DNA of 64,000 bases, taken from contig CM059432.1 of NCBI GenBank assembly GCA_030390025.1, positions 70,744,001 to 70,808,000 on the forward strand, in the 5' to 3' direction. The notes beneath the pieces were generated by a model. It did no database searches. It had not been told where the DNA came from and saw nothing but the letters and a program-made list of their open reading frames with translations. Both the position numbers and the translations under genes were made by a program. The DNA is from Squalus acanthias. Lineage: Eukaryota. Below are positions 14,872-60,841 of the stretch, piece by piece (within the stretch, counting starts at the first letter, position 1; every line of letters starts with the position of its first letter).

Positions 14872-17800
14872 GAGCAGCAGCGGCGAGAGGATAAAGAGCA
14901 GCCCGGGAGCGGACCTGAATAAAAGCAGCGGCGAGAGGACAAAGAACGGCCCGAGAGCGGACCTGAATTAAAGCAGCGGCAGCGCGAGGCTCCGATTCAA
15001 AAACAACAATGAGTAACGTCACAGGAGAGCAGGTAGGTGATTGGTTGGTGAGTATTACAGCTCTTTTTTGCTCTCTAAGTTAGGGAAGGGGGTTAAATTA
15101 AGAGCTGAGAAACTGTAACTTGCTAGTACTTATTAAATTAATAACTTAAACTAAATAAAATAATGAAAGAATAAACCTAAAATATCGATACAATAAACCT
15201 AAAATATCGATTGAATAAAATCTTTAGCAAATTAATTAATAAATAAAACAAGGTTAGAGATGGCAGGGCAGGTGGTGTCATAACTGCAGCATGTGGGAGT
15301 CTGTGGAGAGCATCACGATCCCGAGCAACCACATCTGCAGTAAGTGTCTGCAACTCGAGGAACTTCAGCTCAGAATTGTTGAGCTGGAGTACGAGCTGCA
15401 GACATTGCGATGCATCAGGGAGGGGGAGAGTTACCTGGACACTTTGTTCCAGGAGGCAGTCACACCCTTTAGGTTAAGTAGTACTTTAGAGTTCGTCAGT
15501 GGTTAGGGACAGGAGGGTGTGACTGCGAGTCAGGACGGTATGGGGATACAGGATGTCGTGATGGAGGAGCCTCAGCCCTGGACCTTGTCCAACAGGTATA
15601 ATGTACTTTCTACCTGTATGGATGAGGAAAAGGACTGCAGGGAGGATGGGCAAACTGATCACGGCACTGTGGTACAGGGGGCCATCCAAGTGGGGGGAAG
15701 AAGGAAGGAATGTGGTAGTAGTAGGGGACAGTATAGTCAGGGGGATAGATACTGTTCTCTGCAGCTGCAAAAGAGTCCCGAAGGCTGTGTTGCCTGCCCG
15801 GTGCCAGGGTTAAGGATATCTCCTCGCGGCTGGAGAAGAACTTCGAGTGGGAGTGGGAGGATTCAGTTGTTGTGGTCTATGTAGGAACCAACGACATAGG
15901 TAGAACTAAGAATGAGGTTCTGCTGAGGGAGTTTGAGGAGCTCGGGTCTAAATTAATAAGCCGACCCACAAGGGTAATAATCTCTGGATTACTACCTGAG
16001 CCATGTGCAAATTGGCATAGGGTCAAGCAGATCAGAGTTAAATGCATGGCTCAAAGAGTGGTGTGGGAAAATGGGCTTTCAATTCATGGGGCACTGGCAC
16101 CAGTACTGGGGAAAGAGGGAGCTGTTCCATTGGGACGGGCTCCACTTAAACCGGGCTGGGACCAGCGTCCTGGCAAATCGAATAACTAGGGCTGTAGATA
16201 GGGCTTTAAACTAAAAAAGGGGGGGAGAGGTCAGGTGAGGGGAAATTTAGAAATCTAAAGAGCAAGCTCAAGGCAATAGAGCAGTGTAGCAATTTGGGTA
16301 AAAATAAGCAGAGTGTGACAGGAAGGGACAGAAAGTTTAATGGTAGCAGTGCAGCAGAGAAGAAGGTCAAAGCAGGGAATAATGGTAAAAAAATTAAATT
16401 AAAGGCTCTTTATCTGAATGCATGAAGCATTTGTAACAAGATAGACGAACTAGTGGCAGAAATAGAGATAAATGGGTTTGATCTAATAGCCATTACAGAG
16501 ACATGGTTGCAAGGTGGTCAAGGTTGGGAACTAAATGTACCAAGGTACTTGACGTTTCGAAAAGACAGGCAGATTGGAAAAGGTGGGGGAGTAGCCCTGA
16601 TAATAAAGGATGACATAACGACAATAGCAAGAAAGGATCTCGGCTCAGAAGATCAGGAAGTAGAATCAGTATGGGTGGAGATAAGGAATAACAAGGGGCA
16701 GAAAACACTGTTAGGCGTAGTATATAGCCCCCCTAACAGTAGCTATACCATTGGACAGAATATTAATCAAGAAATAGTAGGAGCTTGCAACAAAGGTAAT
16801 GCAATAATCTTGGGGGACTTTAATCTTCATATAGACTGGACAAATCAAATTGGCAAAGGTAGTCTGGAGGACGAGTTCATGGAATGCATTCGGGACAGTT
16901 TCCTAGAACAATACGTCATGGAACCAACCAGGTAACAGGCTATTTTAGATCTTGTATTGTGTAATGAGACAAGGTTAATTAGCAATGTCATAGTAAAGGA
17001 TCTTCTGGGGCAGAGTGATCATAATATGATAGAATTTCACATTAATTTTGAGAGTGACTTGCCTAAGTCTGAAACTAGAGTCTTAAACTTAAATAAAGCC
17101 AATTACATAGGTATGAGGGGCAAGTTGGCTAAGGTAGATGGGAAAAATAGATTAAAAGGCATGGCGGTAGATAAGCAGTGGCTAGCATTTAAAGAAATAT
17201 TTCATAATTCTCAACAAAAATACATTCCATTGAGAAACAAAAACTCTATGGGAAAAGTCATCCAACCGTGGCTAACTAAAGAAGTTAAGGATAGCATTAG
17301 ATTGAAAGAAGAAGCTTATAATGTAGCAAATAATAATAATAAGCCTGAGGATTGGGAGAGTTTCAGAAACCAGCAAAGGTTGACCAAAAAATTGATAAAA
17401 AGGGAAAAAATAGAATGAGAGAAAACTAGCAAGAAATATAAAAGCAGATTGTAAGAGTTTCTACAAGTATGTAAAAAGGAAAAGAATAGCTCAAGTAAAT
17501 GTTGGTCCCTTAGAGGCTGAGACAGGAGAAATTATTATGGGGAATAAGGAAATGGCAAAAATGTTAAACAAATATTTTGTATCTGTCTTCACAGTAGAAG
17601 ACACAAAAAGCGTACCAAATATGATGGGGAACCAAGGATCTCATGAGGGTGAGGAACTTAATGTAATTAATATAAGTAGAGAAAAAGTACTAGAGAAACT
17701 AATGGGACTAAAAGCTGACAAATCCCCTGGAACCGACGGCCTACATCCTAGGGTTCTAAAGGAGGTGGCTGAAGAGATGGTGGATGCATTGGTTTTGATC

Positions 17801-19676
17801 TTCTAAAATTCCGTAGATTCTGGAATGGTCCCAATGGATTGGAAGGTCGCAAATGTAACACCGCTATTCAAGAAAGGAGGGAGAGAAAAAACAGGGAACT
17901 ACAGGCCAGTTAGCCTGACATCAGTCATCTGGAAAATGCTGGAATCCATTGTTAAGGAAGTGGTATCAAGTCACTTAGAAAATCATAACCTGATTAGGCA
18001 GAGTCAACATGGTTTTATGAAAGGGAAATTGTGTTTAACAAATTTTAGTTTTTTGAGGATGTAACTAGCAGGGTAGATAAAGGGGAACCAGTGGATGTAG
18101 TATATTTGGATTTCCAAAAGGCATTCGATACGGTGCCACATAAAAGGTTATTACACAAGATTAGGGCTCATGGGGTTGGGGGTAATATAGTAGCATGGAC
18201 AGAAAACAGAGTAGGGATAAATGGATCTTTTTCAGGTTGGCAGGCTGTAACTAGTGGGGTGCTGCAAGGATCAGTGTTGGGGCCTCAAATATTTACAATC
18301 TATATTAATGACCTAGATGAAGGGACAGAGTGTAATGTATCTAAGTTTGCTTATGATACAAATCTATGTGGGACAGTAAGCTGTGAGGAGAACACAAAGG
18401 GGGGAATTTTCCCAGCCCTGGGGAGGTGGGTATGGAGGCAGGACTGCCGGGAAAATGGCAGAAACTGGGAGTGGATACCGACCCCGCTCCCAACCCACCG
18501 TTGTGCCATCTTCCTGGGAGGCGGGTCCCTGAGTCGCGCAGGGACCCGTCTCCTCGAGGCGGGAAGGGGATTAGAGCCAATTAACTGTCTGTTAACAGGT
18601 AGTTAACAGGCAGTTTTGAGGCTTTTCCCCATTTTACGCCTGCAATTGCGGGTTTCCTGATGGCTGCGTACCTCACCAGGGTCAGCGAGGCAAGCAGTGG
18701 GTCTATGGGGGTGAGAGGGGTTGAAATGTCAGCTGTAGAGGTGAGTGATGGGTGCAAGTGTGGACAGCTAAGTATGAGAGGTGAGTGTAAAGTGTTAGAA
18801 AAAGTTTCCTTACCTTTGCTTCTTTCTGCAGGCTTCAACCTTTGAGGATCCGGAGATGCCTCATCTCAACGGCAGAGATGACAGAATGGCTGCTGCATTC
18901 TCAGATGCAATTAACAAGGCCAATCAAGGGAAAATAGCATGGGTTGGTCAGACGTCGCTGGGGGCGGGACTGAAACCCAGAAACCAGAAGTCCCGCCTCC
19001 AGCACGTCTCCATTGAGAAAATCCCGCCCAAAGAGTCTGCAAAGGGATATAGATAGACTAAGTGAGTGGGCAGTAAGGTGGCAGATGGAGTATAATGTAA
19101 AGAAATGTGAAGTTATTCACTTTGGTAGGAAGAATAGAAAAACAGAATATATTTTAAATGGTGAGAAACTTTCAAATGTTGGTGTTGAGAGAGATTTGGG
19201 GATCCTCGTGTAAGAAACACAGAAAGCTGGCATGCAGGTACAGCAAACAATGAGGAAGGCAAATGGCATGTTGGCCGTTATTGCAAGGGGGATGGAGTAT
19301 AAGAGTAAGGAAGTCTTGCTACAATTGTACAGGGCCTTGGTGAGACCACACCTGGAGTACTGTGCACAGTTTTAGTCTCCTTATCTAAGGAAGGATATAC
19401 TTGCCTTCGAGGCGATGCAACGAAGGTTCACGAGATTGATTCCTGGGATGAGAGGGCTGTCCTATGATGAGAGATTGTGTAGAATGGGCCTATACTCTCT
19501 GGAGTTTAGAAGAATGAGAGGTGATCTCATTGAAACATACAAGATTCTGAAGGGGATTGGCAGGGTTGATGCTGAGAGGTTGTTTCCCCTGGCTGGAGTG
19601 TCTAGAACTAGGGGGCACAGTGGTGGAGCAGGCTCGAGGGACCATATGGCCTACTCCTGCTCGTATTTATGTTCTT
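14872..19676 (+). mobile_element. Near full-length, inactivated CR1 LINE (ORF1 Zn/leucine zipper plus SGNH esterase ~15260-16214; ORF2 APE-RT ~16400-19620)
   Basis: 5' tandem ~48-bp repeat. ORF1 motifs CSKCLQLEELQLRIVELE, VVGDSIVRG, VGTNDIG, WDGLHLN. ORF2 motifs IAITETWL, ILGDFN, SDHN, NYRPVSLTS, YLDFQKAFD, QGSVLGP. CR1 tail. Multiple stops and frameshifts. Confidence 0.93.
18399..19029. mobile_element. Harbinger-type MITE nested in the CR1 RT
   Basis: TIRs GGGGGGAATTTTCCCA / GGGCGGGATTTTCTCA; 3-bp TSD AAA at 18396-18398 and 19030-19032; CR1 frame continues across it (EENTK|SLQRDIDRL). Second copy at 47623-48747. Confidence 0.85.
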
Positions 19677-19734
19677 ATGATCTCACATGAGTTGCCAAGG
19701 TCAGTGAGTTCATCTTCAAATGGCACATCCTACC

Positions 19735-20628
19735 AGCTGCTCCACTAGCCGATGTTGTGCTCTATAATGTTCCTTGTGGCAGCATGACTCTCATTGTAGG
19801 CCTGCTGTACACATGTGCATGGGTTCCAGACTGGATCATAAACCATGTCATCAGTAAATAACCCTTGTCTCCCAGTAGCCAGCCTTTGACTTGCCGTGGT
19901 GGGTCAAATACAGCTGGCACAGAGGATTGCCACAGAATGAGCAAATTGTGACTACTGCCAGGAAAACTGGCATTCACCTGCATAATGCACTGCCTGTGGT
20001 CACACACCAGCTGCACATTGAGAGAGTGGAATCTCTTTCGGTTCATGAAAATGACCGCGTTGAAATGAGGCACACACAAGGCAATGTGTGTGCAGTCAGT
20101 GGCACCCTGCACCATGGGGAAGCCTATAATCCGTGCAAACCCTTGTGCTAGCTCTGCCTGCTTGTCTCTGGCAAGAGGGAATGTGATGAAGCTATCTCTC
20201 TTTGTATAGACAGCCTCAGTGACCTTCCTTATGCAGCAGTTTACTGCAAACTGTGAGATGTTGCTTATATCTCTAGTAGCAGCCTGGAAGGAGCCTGGTG
20301 CATAAAAGTTCAGAGCCACCGGCACCTTGACAACCACAGGCAATGCAGTCCTTGCCCTGCTTTGAGGTTGCAGTTGTGGCTGCAGCAGTTGGCAGATTTC
20401 AGTCACAACCTCTTTAGTGAAGCGAGGACGTCTCAAGCATTGGTCCTTACTGAAGTTCAGGTAAAAGAATTGCTCCCTAAAGACCCTTGGTGGAAATGAC
20501 CTCCTGCTGAGAGCCCTTCTCCCCCTCCTCCTCCTCCCTCTTCTAGCAGCTTGTCCTGCTCTGCGTGGCTTCTGTTCATTCTCCCAGTCATGCTCAATGC
20601 CAAGAGGAAGGCCTACCAGGCCACCCAT
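19735..20628 (-). pseudogene. Harbinger (HARBI1-like) DDE transposase, frameshifted and truncated
   Basis: GFPMVQGATDCTHIA, FHSLNVQLVCDH, FPGSSHN, GWLLGDKGY; frameshift near 19835, then AYNESHAATRNIIE in another frame. Confidence 0.9.
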
Positions 20629-21499
20629 GTCTGGAAGCAACTTTTTTCAGCACAAGCCTTTAAATCAATGGAAAAATACTTCAGCACCAGCCAGACCACT
20701 CCTGTAGACTATTGAAACTTTAGGCAACTATAGAAAAGCTCCAAAAATGCATGCAATTGCACCAGCAGCCAGAAGAAATAATCCAGCAACTAACCTGTAA
20801 GTAGTTCATGATCCCTTTAAGTAGCGCTGGTGGGGGGTTCTTCATGCCATTTAACATCTTGTTCAGCTGTGCGAGGTTAAGGCACGGCGTAGACTGGAGC
20901 GTGGTGTTTCAAAATGGCAGCGGTGGTGTGAAATCAGCGTTGCGCACAGATTGACGTCATGATCTGCCTGCTCTGCATGCTGCTGGTGTTCATTAGGTGC
21001 ACGCACCTCGGACGGCATTTTCAAGCGTTAGGAGGCTGCATTGTGTCTAAAAATGGGCGCTACAGAGCCCAATTTCTCCCCCATAGTTTCCAGTTGCAGC
21101 CACCTTGCTTTCACTGCAAACACTGTTAGCAACTAACCACCTATGTGCAAGAGGTATCATATTACCATTCACATTCCCTTTCTTCTCCCTCAGTTGTTCC
21201 TTTACACACAGCTGAACATGTAGGGGAAGCAGTGAAGGACTCACATGATATGTAGTTCCTTGCCAGTATCTGTTCATACCTGTATTAAGAATGCCTTCTA
21301 AACCTAACTGCATTCCATATGATGGTATGCGGAGTGCCTTTGCACTCTTCGCTTTCTTATTAAAGAGAAAATGACAACAAAGACAAGGGAATATCATGTC
21401 AATCCCCCAGGGGTCCTGCTGCAAAACACCAGCTAGCCACTCAGAATCTCAAGCCACCATAGAAGAAGTAGGAGGCTAGGATTGAAAAGCCACATAACT

Positions 21500-37787: not shown

Positions 37788-39051
37788 CTACTGAAAAGCC
37801 TGATGAAAACGTGGTAGGGTTGTTGTGCTTAAGCTAGTTGTAAAGACTGTAGATAAGGGATGCAGAGCATTGAGACCAATACTGTTGCCAGTTTCATGCG
37901 AATCCTGGCACTGTGGTGGGAGAGGAATTGGGGATGCGTGAGGTTCCTCCTGTGTATAACACATTCCAGGATTGCCCAAAGAAACTGGTTGATTGTATGG
38001 AGGGCCATTTAGCGGCAAGAAACTTAACAACTGAGAAAAGTCCAAGGATGATGTATTCAGAGGTTCACTGAGGACTGTTGGACTTTTTGAAAGCAAAATA
38101 TCCCCAGATCCATCACCCAGAGACCCTGCCTGGGACTCTAAGCCTAGTTTTGATGAGGATGATTGAGTGTCATGGGCGGAGGGAAGCAAATCACTTTGTA
38201 AATCCAATAAGTAACTGTCTATCTCACTCTTTAATGGTTGTCCTTTTTCAGGCATTGCAATGGCATATGAGGTAGAACCAAGAAAATATTTTGACGTGAG
38301 TTCTTGAGGAGAGCGAATTGAAGACTCAATTTCTAGTGGGCAACCCATTCCTAAAGGTAATGGAGTAGAGACCATTTGGTTTGTTGACCCTAATGTTTGC
38401 ATGGTCTGAATATGGGCACTGTAGATATTCATTTGCAAAGTATTTGTAAATGGCCTAGTTGTCAGTTCACTGGAAACCATTGACATCACTGGACTTAGCT
38501 CATCTTTTAATGACAATGATGGATTCGAGCTAAATAGATCCATAAAGTCTGGTGGTTCAGTTTTCACCTTTAGCAGCTCCTGTGAATGACTTTTCTTCAT
38601 GTGGCGGGTTAAATGGTCCTTCCGACCAAATCTCTGAGCACAGTACTGACAAAGGAAGTCTTTCCTTCCGGTGTGTACTACCATATGTCTCCGTACATCC
38701 TTACGAGTATAGAAACAACGGTCACAGTGGTCACACTGGTGTTTTTTTTCCTTTGTGCCGCTTGATGACTTGCCAGCATGTGTCTTCAGGTGCTCCAGTA
38801 ACACTCCTGTGCTTTCAAATGTTTGTAAGCACACTTTACAGGTAAGGTCACCACTAGTTGCAGCATGCAGAGCCAGATGACGCTTATAACCAAGCTTTGT
38901 ATTGTAGTTTTTCCCACATTCCTCACACTTGAAGGCTTCCTTGTTTGGATCATGAGTCTGAAGATGGTTCTTTAGATGATCTTTACGATGGAACATTTTC
39001 TCACAGTAAGTACACTTGTGGGTCTTCTGAGGTGAATGGGTGGCCATATGC
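37788..39051 (-). CDS. PLAG1: PLAG1 last coding exon (zinc fingers 2-7 and transactivation domain)
   Basis: Acceptor TTATTCAAG|G at 39052; R-HMATHSPQKTHKC...; C2H2 fingers; SUMO-consensus VKTE/LKDE/LKSE; C-terminus TTLPRFHQAFQ*. Joins 53356-53597 in frame: 242+1264 nt = 501 aa plus stop. Confidence 0.97.
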
Positions 39052-40565: not shown

Positions 40566-41920
40566 AATAAAAACAAAATGCTGGAAATACTCAGCAGGTC
40601 AGTCAGCACCTGTGGAGAGAAACAGAGTTAACGTTTCAGGTCGATTACCCTTCGTCAGAACTGGAAAAAGTTGGAGATGGAACAGGTTTTTAAGCAAGTG
40701 TAGGAGCAGGGGGAGGGGAGGAAAGAACAAAAGGGAAGGTCTGTGATAGGATGGAAGGCAGGAGAGATTAAGAGACAAAAGGGATAATGGTGCAGGCAAA
40801 AGGAGATGGTAATGGGACAAGTTAAGAAACAAAAGATGACTCTAGATGAAGTGTAAATGGCAGAATGATCGACCGCTGCCATGTGAGAGAGAGAAAAAAA
40901 CAATATAGGGCAGAGGTTATGGTCTGAAATGTTGAAGTCGATGTTGAGTCCAGAAGACTGTAAAGTGCCTAATCGAAAGATGAGGTGCTGTTCCTCGAGC
41001 TTACGTTGAGCTTCATTGGAACAGTGTAAGAGGCCGAGGACAGAGAGGTCAGAGTGGGAGTGGAGCGGAGAATTAAAGTGACAGGTGACCAGAAGCTCGG
41101 GGTCACCCTTACGGACTGAACGGAGGTGTTCCGCAAAGCGGTCGCCCAATCTGCGTTTGGTCTCCCCAATGTAGAGGAGACTGCATCGTGAGCAGCAAAT
41201 ACAGTATACTAAATTGCAAGAAGTACAAGTAAATCGCTGTTTCACCTGGAAGGAGTGTTTGGGGCCCTGGACAGTGGGAAGGGAGGAGGTAAAAGGACAT
41301 GGTTTGCATCTCCTGTGCTTGTACGTGAAGGTGCCAGGCGAAGGGGAAGGGGTGTTGGGGGTGATTGAGGAGTGGACCAGGGTGTCGCGGAGGGAGCGGT
41401 CCCTTCGGAATGCTGAAAGGGGAGGCGAGGGGAAGATGTGTTTGGTGGTGGGATCACGCTGGAGGTGGCGGAAATGGTGGAGGATGATCCATTGAATGTG
41501 GAGGCTGGTGGGGTGAAAGGTGAGGACAAGGGGAACCCGATCATGGTTCGAGGAGGGAGGGGAAGGGGTGAGAGCAGAAGTGCGGGAAATAGAACGGACA
41601 CGGTCAAGGGCCGTGTCAACCACAGTAGAGGGGAATCCTCGGTTGAGGAAAAAGGAAGACATGTCGGAAGCACTGGTATGGAAGGTGGCATCATCAGAGC
41701 AGATGTGGCGGAGACGGAGAAACTGGGAGAATGGAATAGAGTCCTTACAGGAAGTGGGGTGGGAGGAAATGTAGTCCAGGTAGCTGTGGGAGTCAGTGGG
41801 CTTATAGTGAATGTTTGTCAATAGCCTATCCCCAGAGATGGAGACAGAGAAGTCGAGGAAGGGGAGGGAAGAGTTGGAGATGGACCATGTGAAGGTGAGG
41901 GAAAGGTGGAAATTGGAAGC
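40566..41920 (-). mobile_element. 5'-truncated Penelope-like element (RT C-terminus and GIY-YIG) inserted in the 5' LTR
   Basis: 14-bp TSD TGGTTTTCAACAAT at 40552-40565 and 41921-41934. ORF with YKPTD, NLVYCICCSRCSLLYIGETKRRLGDRFAEH, GLN. Confidence 0.93.
40626..40662 (-). ncRNA. Minimal hammerhead ribozyme motif
   Basis: AGTT-CTGACGA-A-GGGT(AATCG)ACCT-GAA-ACGT-T-AACT on the minus strand. Confidence 0.7.
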
Positions 41921-42412
41921 TGGTTTTCAACAATTTGTCAGTGTGCTTGAAAGATACAGAAGCCAGTAAAGTCACTCTCTGTATACAGTTAAAGGCTGAT
42001 CACCTTTACTGTGCATCAATAAAGTCTGTTCCGTATACTCCACTACGAAGTCTCGTGCTTACTCGAAATGGGTTGTTGTGAACCAGAGGAGAAAGGAGGT
42101 TGCTTAATATTTGGTGCCATGAACTCGTCCAATGAATACGTGGACGGCGAGTATGAATTAATATCGATAGTGGGTATAACTAGCTCCTGGGAATTGTGAT
42201 CTAGGGAATAGATTGGAATCAGACAGTTTCTCGACCAAGTTGGTCCCTTTGAAAATTTCTGACTGGATTAAAAGGGGGACCTTACAATTGTTCCAAGGAA
42301 TTTTAAACGGGTACCGGGAGGAGATTGAGCAGGCACTGGAGAATATGTAATAACAACAGAAAACGCTGGAAAAACTCAGCAGGCCAGGCAGCATCTGTGG
42401 AGAGAGAAACAG

Positions 42413-42449
42413 AGTTAACGTTTCAGGTCGAAGACCTTTCGTCAGAACT
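42413..42449 (-). ncRNA. Minimal hammerhead ribozyme motif
   Basis: AGTT-CTGACGA-A-AGGTC(TTC)GACCT-GAA-ACGT-T-AACT on the minus strand. Confidence 0.75.
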
Positions 42450-45248
42450 GGAAAAAAGCAGGAAATGGAATAGATTTTAAAGCAAGTTTAGGGGCTGGGA
42501 AAAGGGGGAGGGGATGAAAGAACAAAAGGGAAGGTCAGTGATAGGATAGAAAGCAGGAGAGATTAAGACACATTGAGAGATATTCAAGGCAAGAGGACGT
42601 GGTAATGGGACAGGTTAAGGAACAAAGGATGGCTCTAGATGAAGTGTGAATTGCGCTGGCAGAATGAAGGACAGCTGCCATGTGGGAGGGAAGAAAAAGA
42701 GGCCAAACAAAAGTGTGGATAAAAAAATTATATGTATGTGATAGGGGCCGAGGTTATGATCTGAAATTGTTGAACTCTACGTTGAGTCCAGAGGGCTGTA
42801 GAGTGCCTAATCGAAAGATGAGGTGCTGTTCCTCGAGCTTACGCTGAGCTTCCGTGGAACAATGCAAGAGGCCGAGGACGAGGACAGTGAGGTCTGAGTG
42901 GGAATGGAGCAGTGAATTAAAGTGACAGGCCACCGGGAGCTCGGGGTCCCACTTACGGACTGAACGGAGGTGTTCCGCAAAGCGGTCTCCCCAATGTAGA
43001 GGAGACTACATCGTGAGCAGCGAATACAGTATACTAAATTGCAAGAAGTACAAGTAAATCGCTGTTTCACCTAGAAGGGGTGTTTGGGGCCCTGGACAGT
43101 GGGAAGGGGGGAGGTATAAGGGCATGTGCTGCAACCTACCTACCTCCCTCTGAACTTGCAGCACTCCATTCTCTCAGAACCAACCCCGACATTGTCATTA
43201 AACCTGCTGACAAGGGTGGTGCTGTTGTTATTTGGCGAACCGACCTCTACCTAGCGGAAGCTGAACGCCAACTCTCCGACACCTCCTCTTACCTCCACCT
43301 GGACCATGACCCCACTACCGAATATCAAGCCACCGTTTCCAAGACTGTCACTGACCTCATCTCCTCTGGAGATCGTCCCCCCACGGCCGCCAACCTCATA
43401 GTTCCCCAACCCCACACAGCCCGCTTCTACCTCCTTCCCAAGATCCACAAACAGGACTGCCCTGGTAGACCAATCGTTTCAGCCTGTTCTTGCCCCACGG
43501 AACTTATCTCTTCCTATCTTGACTCTTTTTTTCTCCCCTTGTCCAGTCTCTTCCCACCCACATCCACGACTCTTCCGACGCCACTTTAACAGTTTCCAGT
43601 TCCCAACCGCCTCCTTTTCACTATGGACGTACAATCCCTCTACACCTCCATCCCCCACCAGGATGGCCTGAGGGCGCTCCGCTTCTCCCTTGAACAGAGG
43701 CCCAACCAGTCCCCATCCACCACCACCCTCCTCCGCCTGGCTGAACTTGTTCTCACATTGAATAACTTCTCCTTTGACTCCACTCATTTCCTCCAAATCA
43801 AAGGTGTTGCTATGGGTACCCGCATGGGTCCTAGCTATGCCTGCCTTTTCGTGGGATATGTGGAACACTCTTTGTTCCAGTCCTACTCGGGTCCCCTCCC
43901 TCACCTCTTTTTCCAGTACATTGATGACTGTATCGGTGCCGTCTCCTGCTCTCGCCCTGAACTAGAAAATTTCATTCACTTTGCTTCCAATTTCCACCCT
44001 TCCCTCACCTTCACATGGTCCATCTCTGACTTTTCCCTTCCCTTACTCGACTTCTCCATCTCCATCTCTGGGGATAGGTTATTGACAAACATTCACTACA
44101 AGCCCACTGACTCCCACCCCGCCTCCGGTACGGACTCTATTCCATTCTCCCGGTTTCTCCATCTCCGCCGCATCTGCTCTGACGATACCACCTTCCATAT
44201 CAGTGCTTCCGACATGTCTTCCTTTTTCCTCAACCGAGGATTCCCCTCTACTGTGGTTGACACGGCCCTCGACCGTGTCCGTTCTATCTCCCGCACTTCT
44301 GCCCTCACCCCTGCCCCTCCCCCCCGGAACCACGATAAAGTTCCCCTTGTCCTCACCTTTCACCCCACCAGCCTCCACATTCAACGGATCATCCTCCGCC
44401 ATTTCCGCCACCTCCAGCGTGATCCAAACACATCTTCCCCTCACCTCCCCTTTCAGCATTCCGCAGGGACCGCTCCCTCCGTGACACCCAAGTCCACTCC
44501 TCTACCACCCCCAGCACCCCTTCCCCCGGCACCTTCCCGTGCAAGCGCAGGAGATGCAACACATGCCCTTATACCACCCCCACTGTCCAGGGCCCCAAAA
44601 CACCCCTTCCAGGTGAAACAGCGATTTACTTGTACTTCCTGCAATTTAGTATACTGTATTCGCTGCTCACGATGTGGTCTCCTCTACATTGGGGAGACCA
44701 AACGCAGATTGGGTGACCGCTTTGCGGAACACCTCCGTTCAGTCCGTAAGGGGGACCCCGAGCTCCCGGTGGCCTGTCACTTTAATTCACCGCTCCATTC
44801 CCACTCAGACCTTACCGTCCTCGGCCTCTTGCATTGTTCCACGGAAGCTCAGCGTAAGCTCGAGGAACAGCACCTCATCTTTCGATTAGGCACTCTACAG
44901 CCCTCTGGACTCGACGTAGAGTTCAACAATTTCAGATCATAACCTCGGCCCCCATCACATATATATATATTTTTTATCCACACTTTTGTTTGGCCCCTTT
45001 TTTTCTTCCCTCCCACATGGCAGCTGTCCTTCATTCTGCCAGCGCAATTCACACTTCATCTAGAGCCATCCTTTGTTCCTTAACCTGTCCCATTACCACC
45101 TCCTCTTGCCTTGAATATCTCTCAATGTCTCTTAATCTCTCCTGCTTTTTATCCTATCACTGACCTTCCCTTTTGTTCTTTCATCCCCTCCCCTTTTTCC
45201 CAGCCCCTAAACTTGCTTTAAAATCTATTCCATTTCCTGCTGTTTTCC

Positions 45249-53355: not shown

Positions 53356-53597
53356 CTCAGTAGTTTATATTTAGACACAAACGCCTTGGTACAGTCCTCG
53401 TGTGAACACTTGTAGGGTCTTTCTCCGGTGTGTGAATATGAATGCACTTTCAATTTCTCAACACTAGTGAAGATCTTTCCACACAACTGACAAGGAAAGG
53501 ATTTTCTGGATTTGGTTTCACTACGTTTACGTTTTCCTGCTAGAGCCTTCCGAGTATCCTTTACTTCTAAAAGATCACCAGGGATGACAGTGGCCAT
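53356..53597 (-). CDS. PLAG1: PLAG1 first coding exon (whole exon ~53356-53718)
   Basis: [15 protein letters not shown]...GKRKR(NLS)...FPCQLCGK...[13 protein letters not shown]...[11 protein letters not shown]; donor AG|GTATG at 53355; acceptor TTTTATTGTTTATAG at 53719; strong start context GCGATGG. Confidence 0.97.
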
Positions 53598-53691
53598 CGC
53601 AGTCTACAGTAGGCCTAATCTCTGGACACTTGGGTTTTGCCCAGTTGTACTGATAGAAATTGACTTCTGTTTCTTCTTTCTGATGTTTCAT
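53575..53691 (-). other. Upstream overlapping ORF (38 aa) in the PLAG1 leader
   Basis: [38 protein letters not shown]; spans the main ATG out of frame. Translation is not demonstrated. Confidence 0.55.
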
Positions 53692-54029
53692 GTATTCAAC
53701 ACATTTGGCATTTAGAACCTATAAACAATAAAAGTTGTTGAAAGTTTCATAATTCATTTCAGGCAAGATAATGGTGTGACTGAACTTAAGAGCATTCCTT
53801 ACTGCAACAATACTATCTCTATATTACATACTCGGCCCTAATTCTCAGAGCTAAGGCACCACATCTGGAACTATTTTCTAATTATAGACTCATAGCTTAT
53901 TGTAGAATTAACTAAAATTAGTAGAACATAATGCACTTATAATTCTTTATGGATAGTCTTTGAAGGAGACCTAATCCTCTTTCTCCTGTGCACTTTTGTC
54001 TCCAATTATGAAGGTCTAAATGAAGGTCC

Positions 54030-54810
54030 AATTATCAAAATCCACGACAAGACCTTGGACAACGTGGACCACTTGCCATACCTCGGGAGCCTACTGTCAA
54101 CAAGGGCAGACGTCGATGACGAAGTCCAACACCGCCTTCAGTGTGCCAGTGCAGCCTTCGGTCGCCTGAGGAAGAGAGTGTTTGAAGACCAGGACCTCAA
54201 ACCCAGCACCAAGCTCTACAGAGCAGTAGTAATACCCGCCCTCCTGTATGCCTCAGAGACATGGACCATTTACAGCAGGCACCTCAAAGCACTGGAGAGG
54301 TACCACCAACGCTGCCACCGCAAGATCCTACAAATCCATTGGCAGGATAGGCGCACCAATGTCAGTGTTCTCGCTCAGGCCAACATCCCCAGCATCGAAG
54401 CTTTGACCACGCTCGATCAGCTCCGATGGACGGGGCACATCGTCTGCATGCCCGATACGGGACTCCCAAAACAAGAGCTCTACTCGGAGCTCTGACACGG
54501 CAAGAGAGCCCCAGGTGGGCAGAAAAAACGCTTCAAGGACACCCTCAAAGCTTCCCCACCGACACCTGGGAATCCCTGGCCCAAGACCACACAAAGTGGA
54601 GGAGAAGCATCCGGGAAGGCGCCGAACACCTCGAGTCTCTTCGCCAGGAGCAAGCGCAAGCACCCCACCCACCCGCCCCTTCAACCACCGTCTGCCCCAC
54701 CTGTGACAGAGACTGTAGGTCCCGCATTGGATTCATCAGTCACCTGAGAACTCATTTTTAGTGTGGAAGCAAGTCATCCTCGGTTCCGAGGGACTGCCTA
54801 AGAGAAGAGA
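54030..54810 (+). mobile_element. RTE-clade (BovB-like) LINE 3' fragment
   Basis: FPYLGS-like LPYLGS, ASAAFGRLRKRVF, LLYASETWT, QLRWTGHIV, C-terminal CPTC...SRIGFISHLRTH zinc motif, AG-rich tail. Confidence 0.9.
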
Positions 54811-55780: not shown

Positions 55781-56920
55781 ATAAATCATCTACATGTAAA
55801 TGCCAACCCTATTACTGTTTATATTTGTTCACTCCATGTATTAGATTCCCTTAATGGTTTTTCTTTAAGATTATTTGTAAAAGGTTAACCATGTGCAAGG
55901 AAAATGATTTTATTTGAAACACTGTCACTTTTGGTGTGGGTGGTAAACTGGCGGTTGTGGATGAACCGCACGGTATATGCCTTGCCCAATTTTCTTTCTC
56001 TCAATGGAACTGAAAAATTTGGGTGGGGTGTATAACATGTAACCAATGTCAGTTTACTGAAAGTGAAAATCGGCTGCACTGTTTTCAAATGCATTCCAAG
56101 AATTATTGAGTTTTCAATATAATGTTACCCAAAAACTGGAGTAATATTCACAAAGATTCCCCATTATTAATAGAGGTTGGCTAAATTAGCCAGCGTGTTA
56201 CAATTAACTATATGGACATGCAAATGATGAAGTCAAAAATGTAACAAAAGATATTGCGAGTTTGCTTTTTCTGTAATTAGATTACGGGGCGGGGGAGAGA
56301 AGTTTACCTGCTCAAATGTTTTTCTTCCGAGTTCTACTCATTGTGAAAATATCACTTTCCACAGTAGGACTCAGGTTCAGGCTCATCAAGTTTGTGCAGT
56401 CACTCTTTGCCCCAGTTTCTGCAAATCACGAATCTAGAACCTAGGGGCAAAAATCAGAAATTGGTGTCACAAGTGCACAAACCAAGTATTCTTGAAATTT
56501 ACCTATACTAAAGAAAATAACTAAAATTTGGATAATTTTACAATAGGACTGGGGAGAAAAAGTTTTCGCAGGTTAGTTTCTTTGGCTCTTACAAGTCAGG
56601 AAAAAAATGAACCAAGTGGCAATGAAGAGCACTGTAGAATTTTGAAAACTACATAAAAAATAACACTGCTAATTAGAAAGCAAGAACTTGAATGTAAAAT
56701 AGGACCTCATCACATTTCTCAAAAACCCAAAGTGATTTACACAGAATGTATTATATTGTGTAATTACTGTTGTTGGCAAATTAGGGCTTTATATTGGCTT
56801 TTGTGATATGTTAAACAAGATTTTCTAAAATAATCTACTGTTTGAAAATGTGTAATTTAAAAATGATGCAGTATTTTTAAAGTTACTGGTGTGGTAATTC
56901 TTTATTCAAGAGCAGTTATA

Positions 56921-60709: not shown

Positions 60710-60841
60710 CTTTTCTGTACTTCACTGTTCTGTTGTAAAACCAATGGACTATACTTCCAGCTTCATGTACAGTGGTCTCAACCAGTCCCGCTAATTCTTC
60801 CTGGTGGTGACCAGAATGTACTATGTCCCATTTTTGATGAT
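60710..60841 (-). other. PLAG1: Candidate PLAG1 5'-UTR exon containing a 17-aa uORF (60831-60778)
   Basis: Acceptor CCTTTTTAG at 60842, donor AAG|GTAAC at 60709, unique sequence, AAAATGG-initiated MGHSTFWSPPGRISGTG*. Resembles my unverified recollection of the mammalian PLAG1 leader. Confidence 0.65.

Follow-up and report, generated by a model that had tools for sequence, protein, structure and literature searches.

In delayed reinitiation of the ATF4 type, a short first upstream open reading frame (uORF) that permits reinitiation is followed by a conserved overlapping uORF. Hox mRNAs carry conserved inhibitory uORFs that begin at AUG codons in poor context (Ivanov et al. 2022, PMC8892498), and uORFs that overlap the main coding sequence (CDS) out of frame are described as a class termed oORFs or uoORFs (Whiffin 2020, PMC7253449; Wieder 2024, PMC11057154), with such elements reported to be commoner in dosage-sensitive genes (PMC11057154). 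For human PLAG1, the Ribo-seq uORF c8riboseqorf50 has been listed with a negative PhyloCSF score (Sandmann 2023, PMC10032668). The main text of PMC8892498 does not name PLAG1 (0 occurrences). No report of a uORF in the first coding exon of PLAG1 was found in the literature searched, although the catalogue supplements of PMC7530721, PMC13010147, PMC13275300 and PMC8892498 lay outside that search and could include it. PLAG1 gave 0 matches in the supplements of PMC4568590 (9 of 16 files), PMC10908861 (11 of 12 files) and PMC4739776 (3 files), where it may be entered under other identifiers, so that these counts do not amount to absence.

Within the window (the whole 64,000-nt stretch of Squalus acanthias DNA analyzed), the first coding exon of PLAG1 contains an upstream ATG on the minus strand (uATG; 53689 to 53691) that can be compared with each of these systems. 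As in the Hox uORFs, a conserved upstream AUG in poor context precedes the good main AUG of a developmental transcription factor, and the uORF overlaps or closely approaches the main start, which would be blocked; unlike them, the PLAG1 frame flips by lineage, overlapping the main ATG or ending 6 nt upstream of it. Features of the oORF/uoORF class are also present, namely, an out-of-frame AUG in the spliced 5′ leader, a stop downstream of the main AUG (+23) and a dosage-sensitive gene, whereas the predicted overlap here is confined to the shark lineage, plus an echidna gene model in another frame. The human c8riboseqorf50 belongs to the same gene, and exon 1 of the shark gene carries its homologue (40 aa, strong context), but it is a different ORF from the one opened by the uATG, lying ∼43 kb upstream. 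An overlapping uORF with other uORFs before it also recalls ATF4. A switch of that type was considered and rejected, as the first uORF in strong context spans 40 codons, the tiny uORFs end 1 to 2 nt before the uATG or overlap it, and amniotes lack the overlap.

A dosage-sensitive regulator of growth, PLAG1 is also a fusion oncogene, with reported links to Silver-Russell and Wilms. Splicing of the two coding exons generates a protein of 501 aa, for which the best full-coverage matches were shark and ray PLAG1 (90 to 95%). The first coding exon (53356 to 53718, minus strand) comprises 121 nt of leader and 242 nt of CDS, with the main ATG at 53597 in strong context (G at −3 and +4). The last coding exon spans 37788 to 39051 (minus strand) as far as the stop, and the MATHSP methionine, correctly placed at 39047 by the initial annotation, is Met83. 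The uATG lies at −94 in the context TAC-ATG-A, weak at both −3 (a pyrimidine) and +4 (A). As first described, it opens a 38-aa out-of-frame ORF (53575 to 53691, minus strand); the stop, initially put at about 20 nt inside the CDS, ends exactly 23 nt inside it. A 7-aa uORF in the main frame (53688 to 53711, minus strand) ends in a TGA that does overlap the uATG as ATGA, and a 2-aa uORF (53696 to 53704, minus strand), missing from the earlier list, lies between the starts of the 7- and 38-aa ORFs. All three have weak contexts. The main frame also retains a TAG at −9 to −7 (53604 to 53606, minus strand), which is the stop of a 27-aa uORF in amniotes and into which no ATG reads here. Since 38% of 20,000 base-shuffled leaders yielded some overlapping ATG ORF and 3.2% yielded one of at least 38 aa, the 38-aa ORF by itself is only mildly unusual.

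Contigs from all four runs (X1, X12, X19, and X20), which were assumed to be RNA, joined exon 53718-53356 to a 133-nt leader exon at 56308 to 56440 (minus strand), and because of this junction the ATGs of the 38-, 7-, and 2-aa ORFs all lie in the spliced leader. X19 additionally extended to the last exon at 39051. The 133-nt exon holds a 24-aa uORF (56386 to 56312) with a second in-frame ATG. Upstream of it, X12 continued into an optional leader exon at 60710 to 60841 (minus strand), of which the 3′ end was defined by contigs and the 5′ end was inferred from the acceptor; it carries a 17-aa uORF in strong context (60831 to 60778) and a weak 5-aa uORF, the start of which resembles the amniote uATG motif (M-K-L-E). 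The optional exon is homologous to an amniote leader exon, as alignment with the pangolin and echidna models shows. The idea that the leader encodes a long conserved frame running through this exon was rejected, as the frame aligns to these models but meets stops in this fish, and there was no support for the leader exons being mutual duplicates (p = 0.07 to 0.84).

Exon 1, located through the loose end of a contig and reached by X1, X12, and X19, lies outside the window (G000:C8:70840230); a search of the shark's own genome with the amniote leader protein model gave no match. The part of the assembled leader examined has 9 upstream ATGs if the optional exon is left out and 11 if it is included, or 12 distinct upstream ORF readings when both forms of the exon 1 junction ORF are counted. 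The chain begins with the strong-context 40-aa uORF of exon 1 (L009:1500-1638, minus strand; G000:C8:70840368) and ends with the 38-aa ORF. Besides human c8riboseqorf50, the exon 1 uORF resembles a stretch of the Komodo dragon model P0216. The exon 1 uORF ends in a stop that shares bases with a further ATG (TGATG); when the middle exons are skipped, this ATG reads into the last exon in frame, which would produce a 7-aa extension as in bamboo-shark models.

A counterpart of the uATG was identified in L008, a metagenome contig with a PLAG1 exon and one of four matches from a pattern scan (L005 to L007 were unrelated and were dropped); further pattern scans of genome and viral contigs for vertebrate counterparts gave 0 matches. 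The protein encoded by the L008 exon equals bird/reptile PLAG1 over the exon, and its alignment with the shark exon contains one 4-nt gap just after the uATG (359 versus 363 nt). The only upstream ATG in L008 is the homologue of the shark uATG, in weak context but at −90 and in the main frame, where it opens 27 codons that end in a TAG 6 nt ahead of the main ATG; the 7-aa uORF has no counterpart ATG there. All five candidates returned by a search with this frame were vertebrate gene models. The same 27-mer ends the pangolin, Komodo dragon, flying fox, and titi monkey models, with 25 of 27 residues invariant when L008 is included. The residues D-H-M-K, which imply C at −3 and A at +4, were present in 6/6 bony-vertebrate models that include leader (these four, echidna, and moray eel), a sample biased by having been found through similarity to the 27-mer and made up of automatic gene models, with L008 as the sole nonshark nucleotide sequence. 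The eel model keeps D-H-M-K-L-E with equal spacing to GQ, and the echidna model begins like the 27-mer and then shifts to the third frame, which may be an assembly error. The uATG is kept in weak context in sharks, the eel model, and amniotes, which makes it older than the initial annotation could establish, and one ATG is read in three frames: overlapping in the shark, main-frame 27-mer in five amniote sequences, and third frame in the echidna model. The agreement of eel and amniotes, together with the same gap in the PLAG-family paralogue L002 (a weak alignment), suggests that the shark frame is the derived one. In the echidna RefSeq models P0219 and P0220, the ORF that starts in the leader runs through the main ATG in the third frame, and an apparent donor ∼33 nt into the CDS then joins it to the last exon; the 517- to 520-aa PLAG1 product with a different N terminus could be a real isoform or an assembly artifact.

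The ATG is aligned, weak in both lineages, and predicted to block the main start in both layouts, and it is best read, with moderate confidence, as an old weak-context upstream start, extending from sharks to mammals, that likely acts in cis as a brake on PLAG1 whatever peptide is made. A minority of scanning ribosomes would initiate at the uATG and then miss the main start, and most ribosomes arriving at the exon would leak past to the strong main ATG. In the shark layout, ribosomes on the uORF would terminate beyond the main ATG and so bypass it; in the amniote layout, the 27-codon ORF would terminate just short of it, leaving a gap across which reinitiation is inefficient. The uATG would then act as a fractional damper, the last of the 9 to 12 upstream ATGs, which are headed by the 40-codon exon 1 uORF. 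The ancient elements are the weak-context ATG and a layout that would keep ribosomes off the main start in both lineages. The apparent target of selection is the start codon with its blocking position rather than the peptide, and the element is probably an ancient translational damper of an ordinary kind, in which the frame flip is instructive. That flip between shark and amniotes amounts to a natural experiment on start codon versus peptide. Counting for a brake are the alignment of the ATG between shark and L008 while the frame varies by lineage, the D-H-M-K residues of the six gene models, the persistence of the ATG in five shark relatives (organisms A to E), the indel contrast between neighboring exons of organism F described below, and the reported excess of such elements in dosage-sensitive genes. 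The leader from −49 to −1 also counts for it, being identical between shark and amniote at 36 of 49 positions, compared with 31 of 57 synonymous CDS sites (Fisher p = 0.047). Counting against it, the paralogue L002 lacks the uATG, the human Ribo-seq table of PMC10032668 gives only the exon 1 uORF for PLAG1 and none in the first coding exon, and identity across the leader from −81 to −1 (52/81) was not significantly above that at synonymous CDS sites (p = 0.29). In amniotes, moreover, nucleotide conservation extends over the whole stretch, and the ATG might therefore be carried along with some other element. Full-length PLAG1 transcripts, including fusions that swap first exons, keep the first coding exon, in which the uATG sits; if the brake is real, variants at the uATG would tune PLAG1 output.

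This passenger explanation is the likeliest rival, although we consider it rather unlikely: the stretch around the start would be conserved as RNA or DNA, through splicing signals, a hairpin, or a regulatory site, with the uATG and its ORFs having little effect. Between shark and amniote, 23 of the first 24 CDS nucleotides are identical, which points to such constraint. Over 25 third-frame residues the echidna model equals L008, which fixes 25 main-frame wobble bases, as these are the middle bases of the third-frame codons; by arithmetic, the chance of this at 80% identity per site is 0.004. The first coding exon is also skipped in some shark gene models, in keeping with splicing signals. A predicted 7-bp hairpin (53622 to 53644, minus strand) is common to shark and amniote and includes one compensatory pair, and its stem is free of the 11 sites that vary among sharks; it is a candidate cause of the nucleotide conservation but a weak hint that lacks statistical support, being based on two sequences, equaled by 256 of 500 shuffles, and with an empty stem at p = 0.16. 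Folding z-scores near zero (−0.47 to 0.08) and the lack of an Rfam match argue against an RNA structure, and the ATG-AAA-C block is identical though its flanks diverge, which favors the start codon itself over a passenger role.

If the uATG acts as a brake, its reach could extend to the short isoform of 413 to 419 aa, which is widespread. No ATG occurs in any frame from +3 to +245, ahead of Met83 (in one of several tests, synonymous recoding gave p = 0.044 for this stretch), or in the corresponding exon part of L008, and because no ATG intervenes, reinitiation at Met83 after the uORF is possible. Ribosomes captured at the uATG would be carried past the main AUG in sharks or up against it in amniotes, and scanning would resume over the ATG-free 243-nt stretch to Met83. 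A weak start as old as jawed vertebrates would in that case tie both PLAG1 dose and the ratio of long to short isoform to start codon stringency, and the element would have survived the frame flip since nothing beyond the start codon and its blocking effect would be of consequence. This extension is improbable. The bamboo-shark models P0155 and P0156 join exon 1 directly to the last exon, a join that also works in this fish, and the zebra-shark model P0160 joins the 133-nt exon to the last exon; as such exon-skipping models yield the short form, splicing alone suffices to explain it. Should the stringency reading be true, the uATG would be the one brake left in place by tumor fusions that replace exon 1, and a feedback loop would be closed, given that PLAG1 itself has been reported to dampen protein synthesis (PMC9437713).

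Could the functional product be the 27-aa peptide of bony vertebrates, which sharks either lost through the 4-nt insertion or never had? The invariance of 25 of 27 residues across the five amniote sequences and the matching ATG-to-GQ register of the eel model speak for it. In the gapless 81 nt shared by shark and L008, the main frame is the sole frame with several synonymous changes (10 identical, 4 synonymous, and 13 nonsynonymous codons), and the TAG is kept. Residues upstream of the ATG are, however, about equally conserved, wobble positions are fixed too, and differences by codon position (12/8/9) show no third-position excess. The echidna model departs from the frame (with the reservation of an assembly error), a shark relative (organism F) carries a stop in the main frame upstream of the PLAG1 start, and the 27-aa uORF does not appear in the Ribo-seq table of PMC10032668. 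The chance that this peptide is the selected product appears slim.

Among the sharks, runs from four relatives (organisms C to F) were compared over the first coding exon, and loose contig ends added organisms A, B, and E. In organism F the first base of the uATG lies too near the end of a piece to be scored, and 4 of its 18 differences are unlisted. None of the listed differences of organisms C to F interrupts or shifts the 38-aa frame, and the sole indel listed is a frame-keeping 3-nt insertion in organism F, the adjacent leader exon of which has five frame-breaking indels. The absence of any listed stop, frameshift, or ATG loss indicates that the overlapping layout has been retained among the sharks. 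Of the 11 variable shark leader sites, 4 are synonymous in the 38-aa frame (2.0 expected; p = 0.12) and 1 in each of the other frames, a hint of peptide constraint only.

Beyond sharks, conservation of the 38-aa peptide across jawed vertebrates, as first proposed, failed: in the 38-aa frame L008 has no ATG and three stops, and the shark-amniote comparison over the same 81 nt gave 10 identical, 0 synonymous, and 16 nonsynonymous codons. The human look-alike given in the initial annotation was partly borne out, in that 24 open codons in L008 match it up to the same stop at +23, but they have no ATG and the three stops lie upstream of them; the nearest sequence to human was the titi monkey model. 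The tail of the peptide looks familiar because the nucleotides are conserved, since any frame read across such a block appears conserved. A search of small proteins with a 47-aa frame found no homologue; HMMER with 1.84 billion representatives as the target returned only two matches, both long, bacterial type, and repeat driven; none of three peptides matched Pfam, and the best Atlas score was 0.79, which is lead level only. These database searches are a weak test, as ORFs of this size seldom receive annotation. The 38-aa ORF thus has neither the conserved start, frame, and stop, nor the synonymous excess, nor the database homologue of a conserved-peptide uORF, and as a conserved microprotein it is rejected outside sharks. 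Despite the four synonymous shark sites, the 24 open codons, and the fixed main-frame wobble bases, which are first positions in its frame, a selected 38-aa peptide, in all jawed vertebrates or within sharks, is very improbable, the stop at +23 also appearing in 30% of synonymous recodings, and the 38-mer of this fish probably arose as a mere by-product. For microprotein hunting this is a caution, as a convincing cross-species peptide came from nucleotide conservation in a frame without an amniote start codon.

Two PLAG-family paralogues were also inspected. In the first coding exon of L002 (G000:C11), 44 codons ahead of the ATG form an open stretch in the main frame, near the start of which a CTG in good context (A at −3 and G at +4) could allow a non-AUG N-terminal extension; its leader has only one uORF, of 9 aa. 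The equivalent exon of L003 (G000:C1000) is open in frame from the acceptor, and its product includes an additional CxxC-x12-H-xxx-H-like motif, a hint that the leader part of the PLAG1 first coding exon may once have been coding.

Downstream of PLAG1, an intronless MOS-like kinase ORF (12271 to 11204, minus strand) starts like known MOS proteins, and the protein database cluster of P0016 mixes PLAG1 with MOS, probably because a gene model has fused these neighbors. Elsewhere in the window, inspection of translations by eye identified remnants of Harbinger-like Myb/SANT and transposase-like ORFs (120 to 596 and 19762 to 20646, minus strand) and many LINE/Penelope-like reverse transcriptase fragments (15749 to 19690, 40655 to 44942, and 53932 to 54761, among others).
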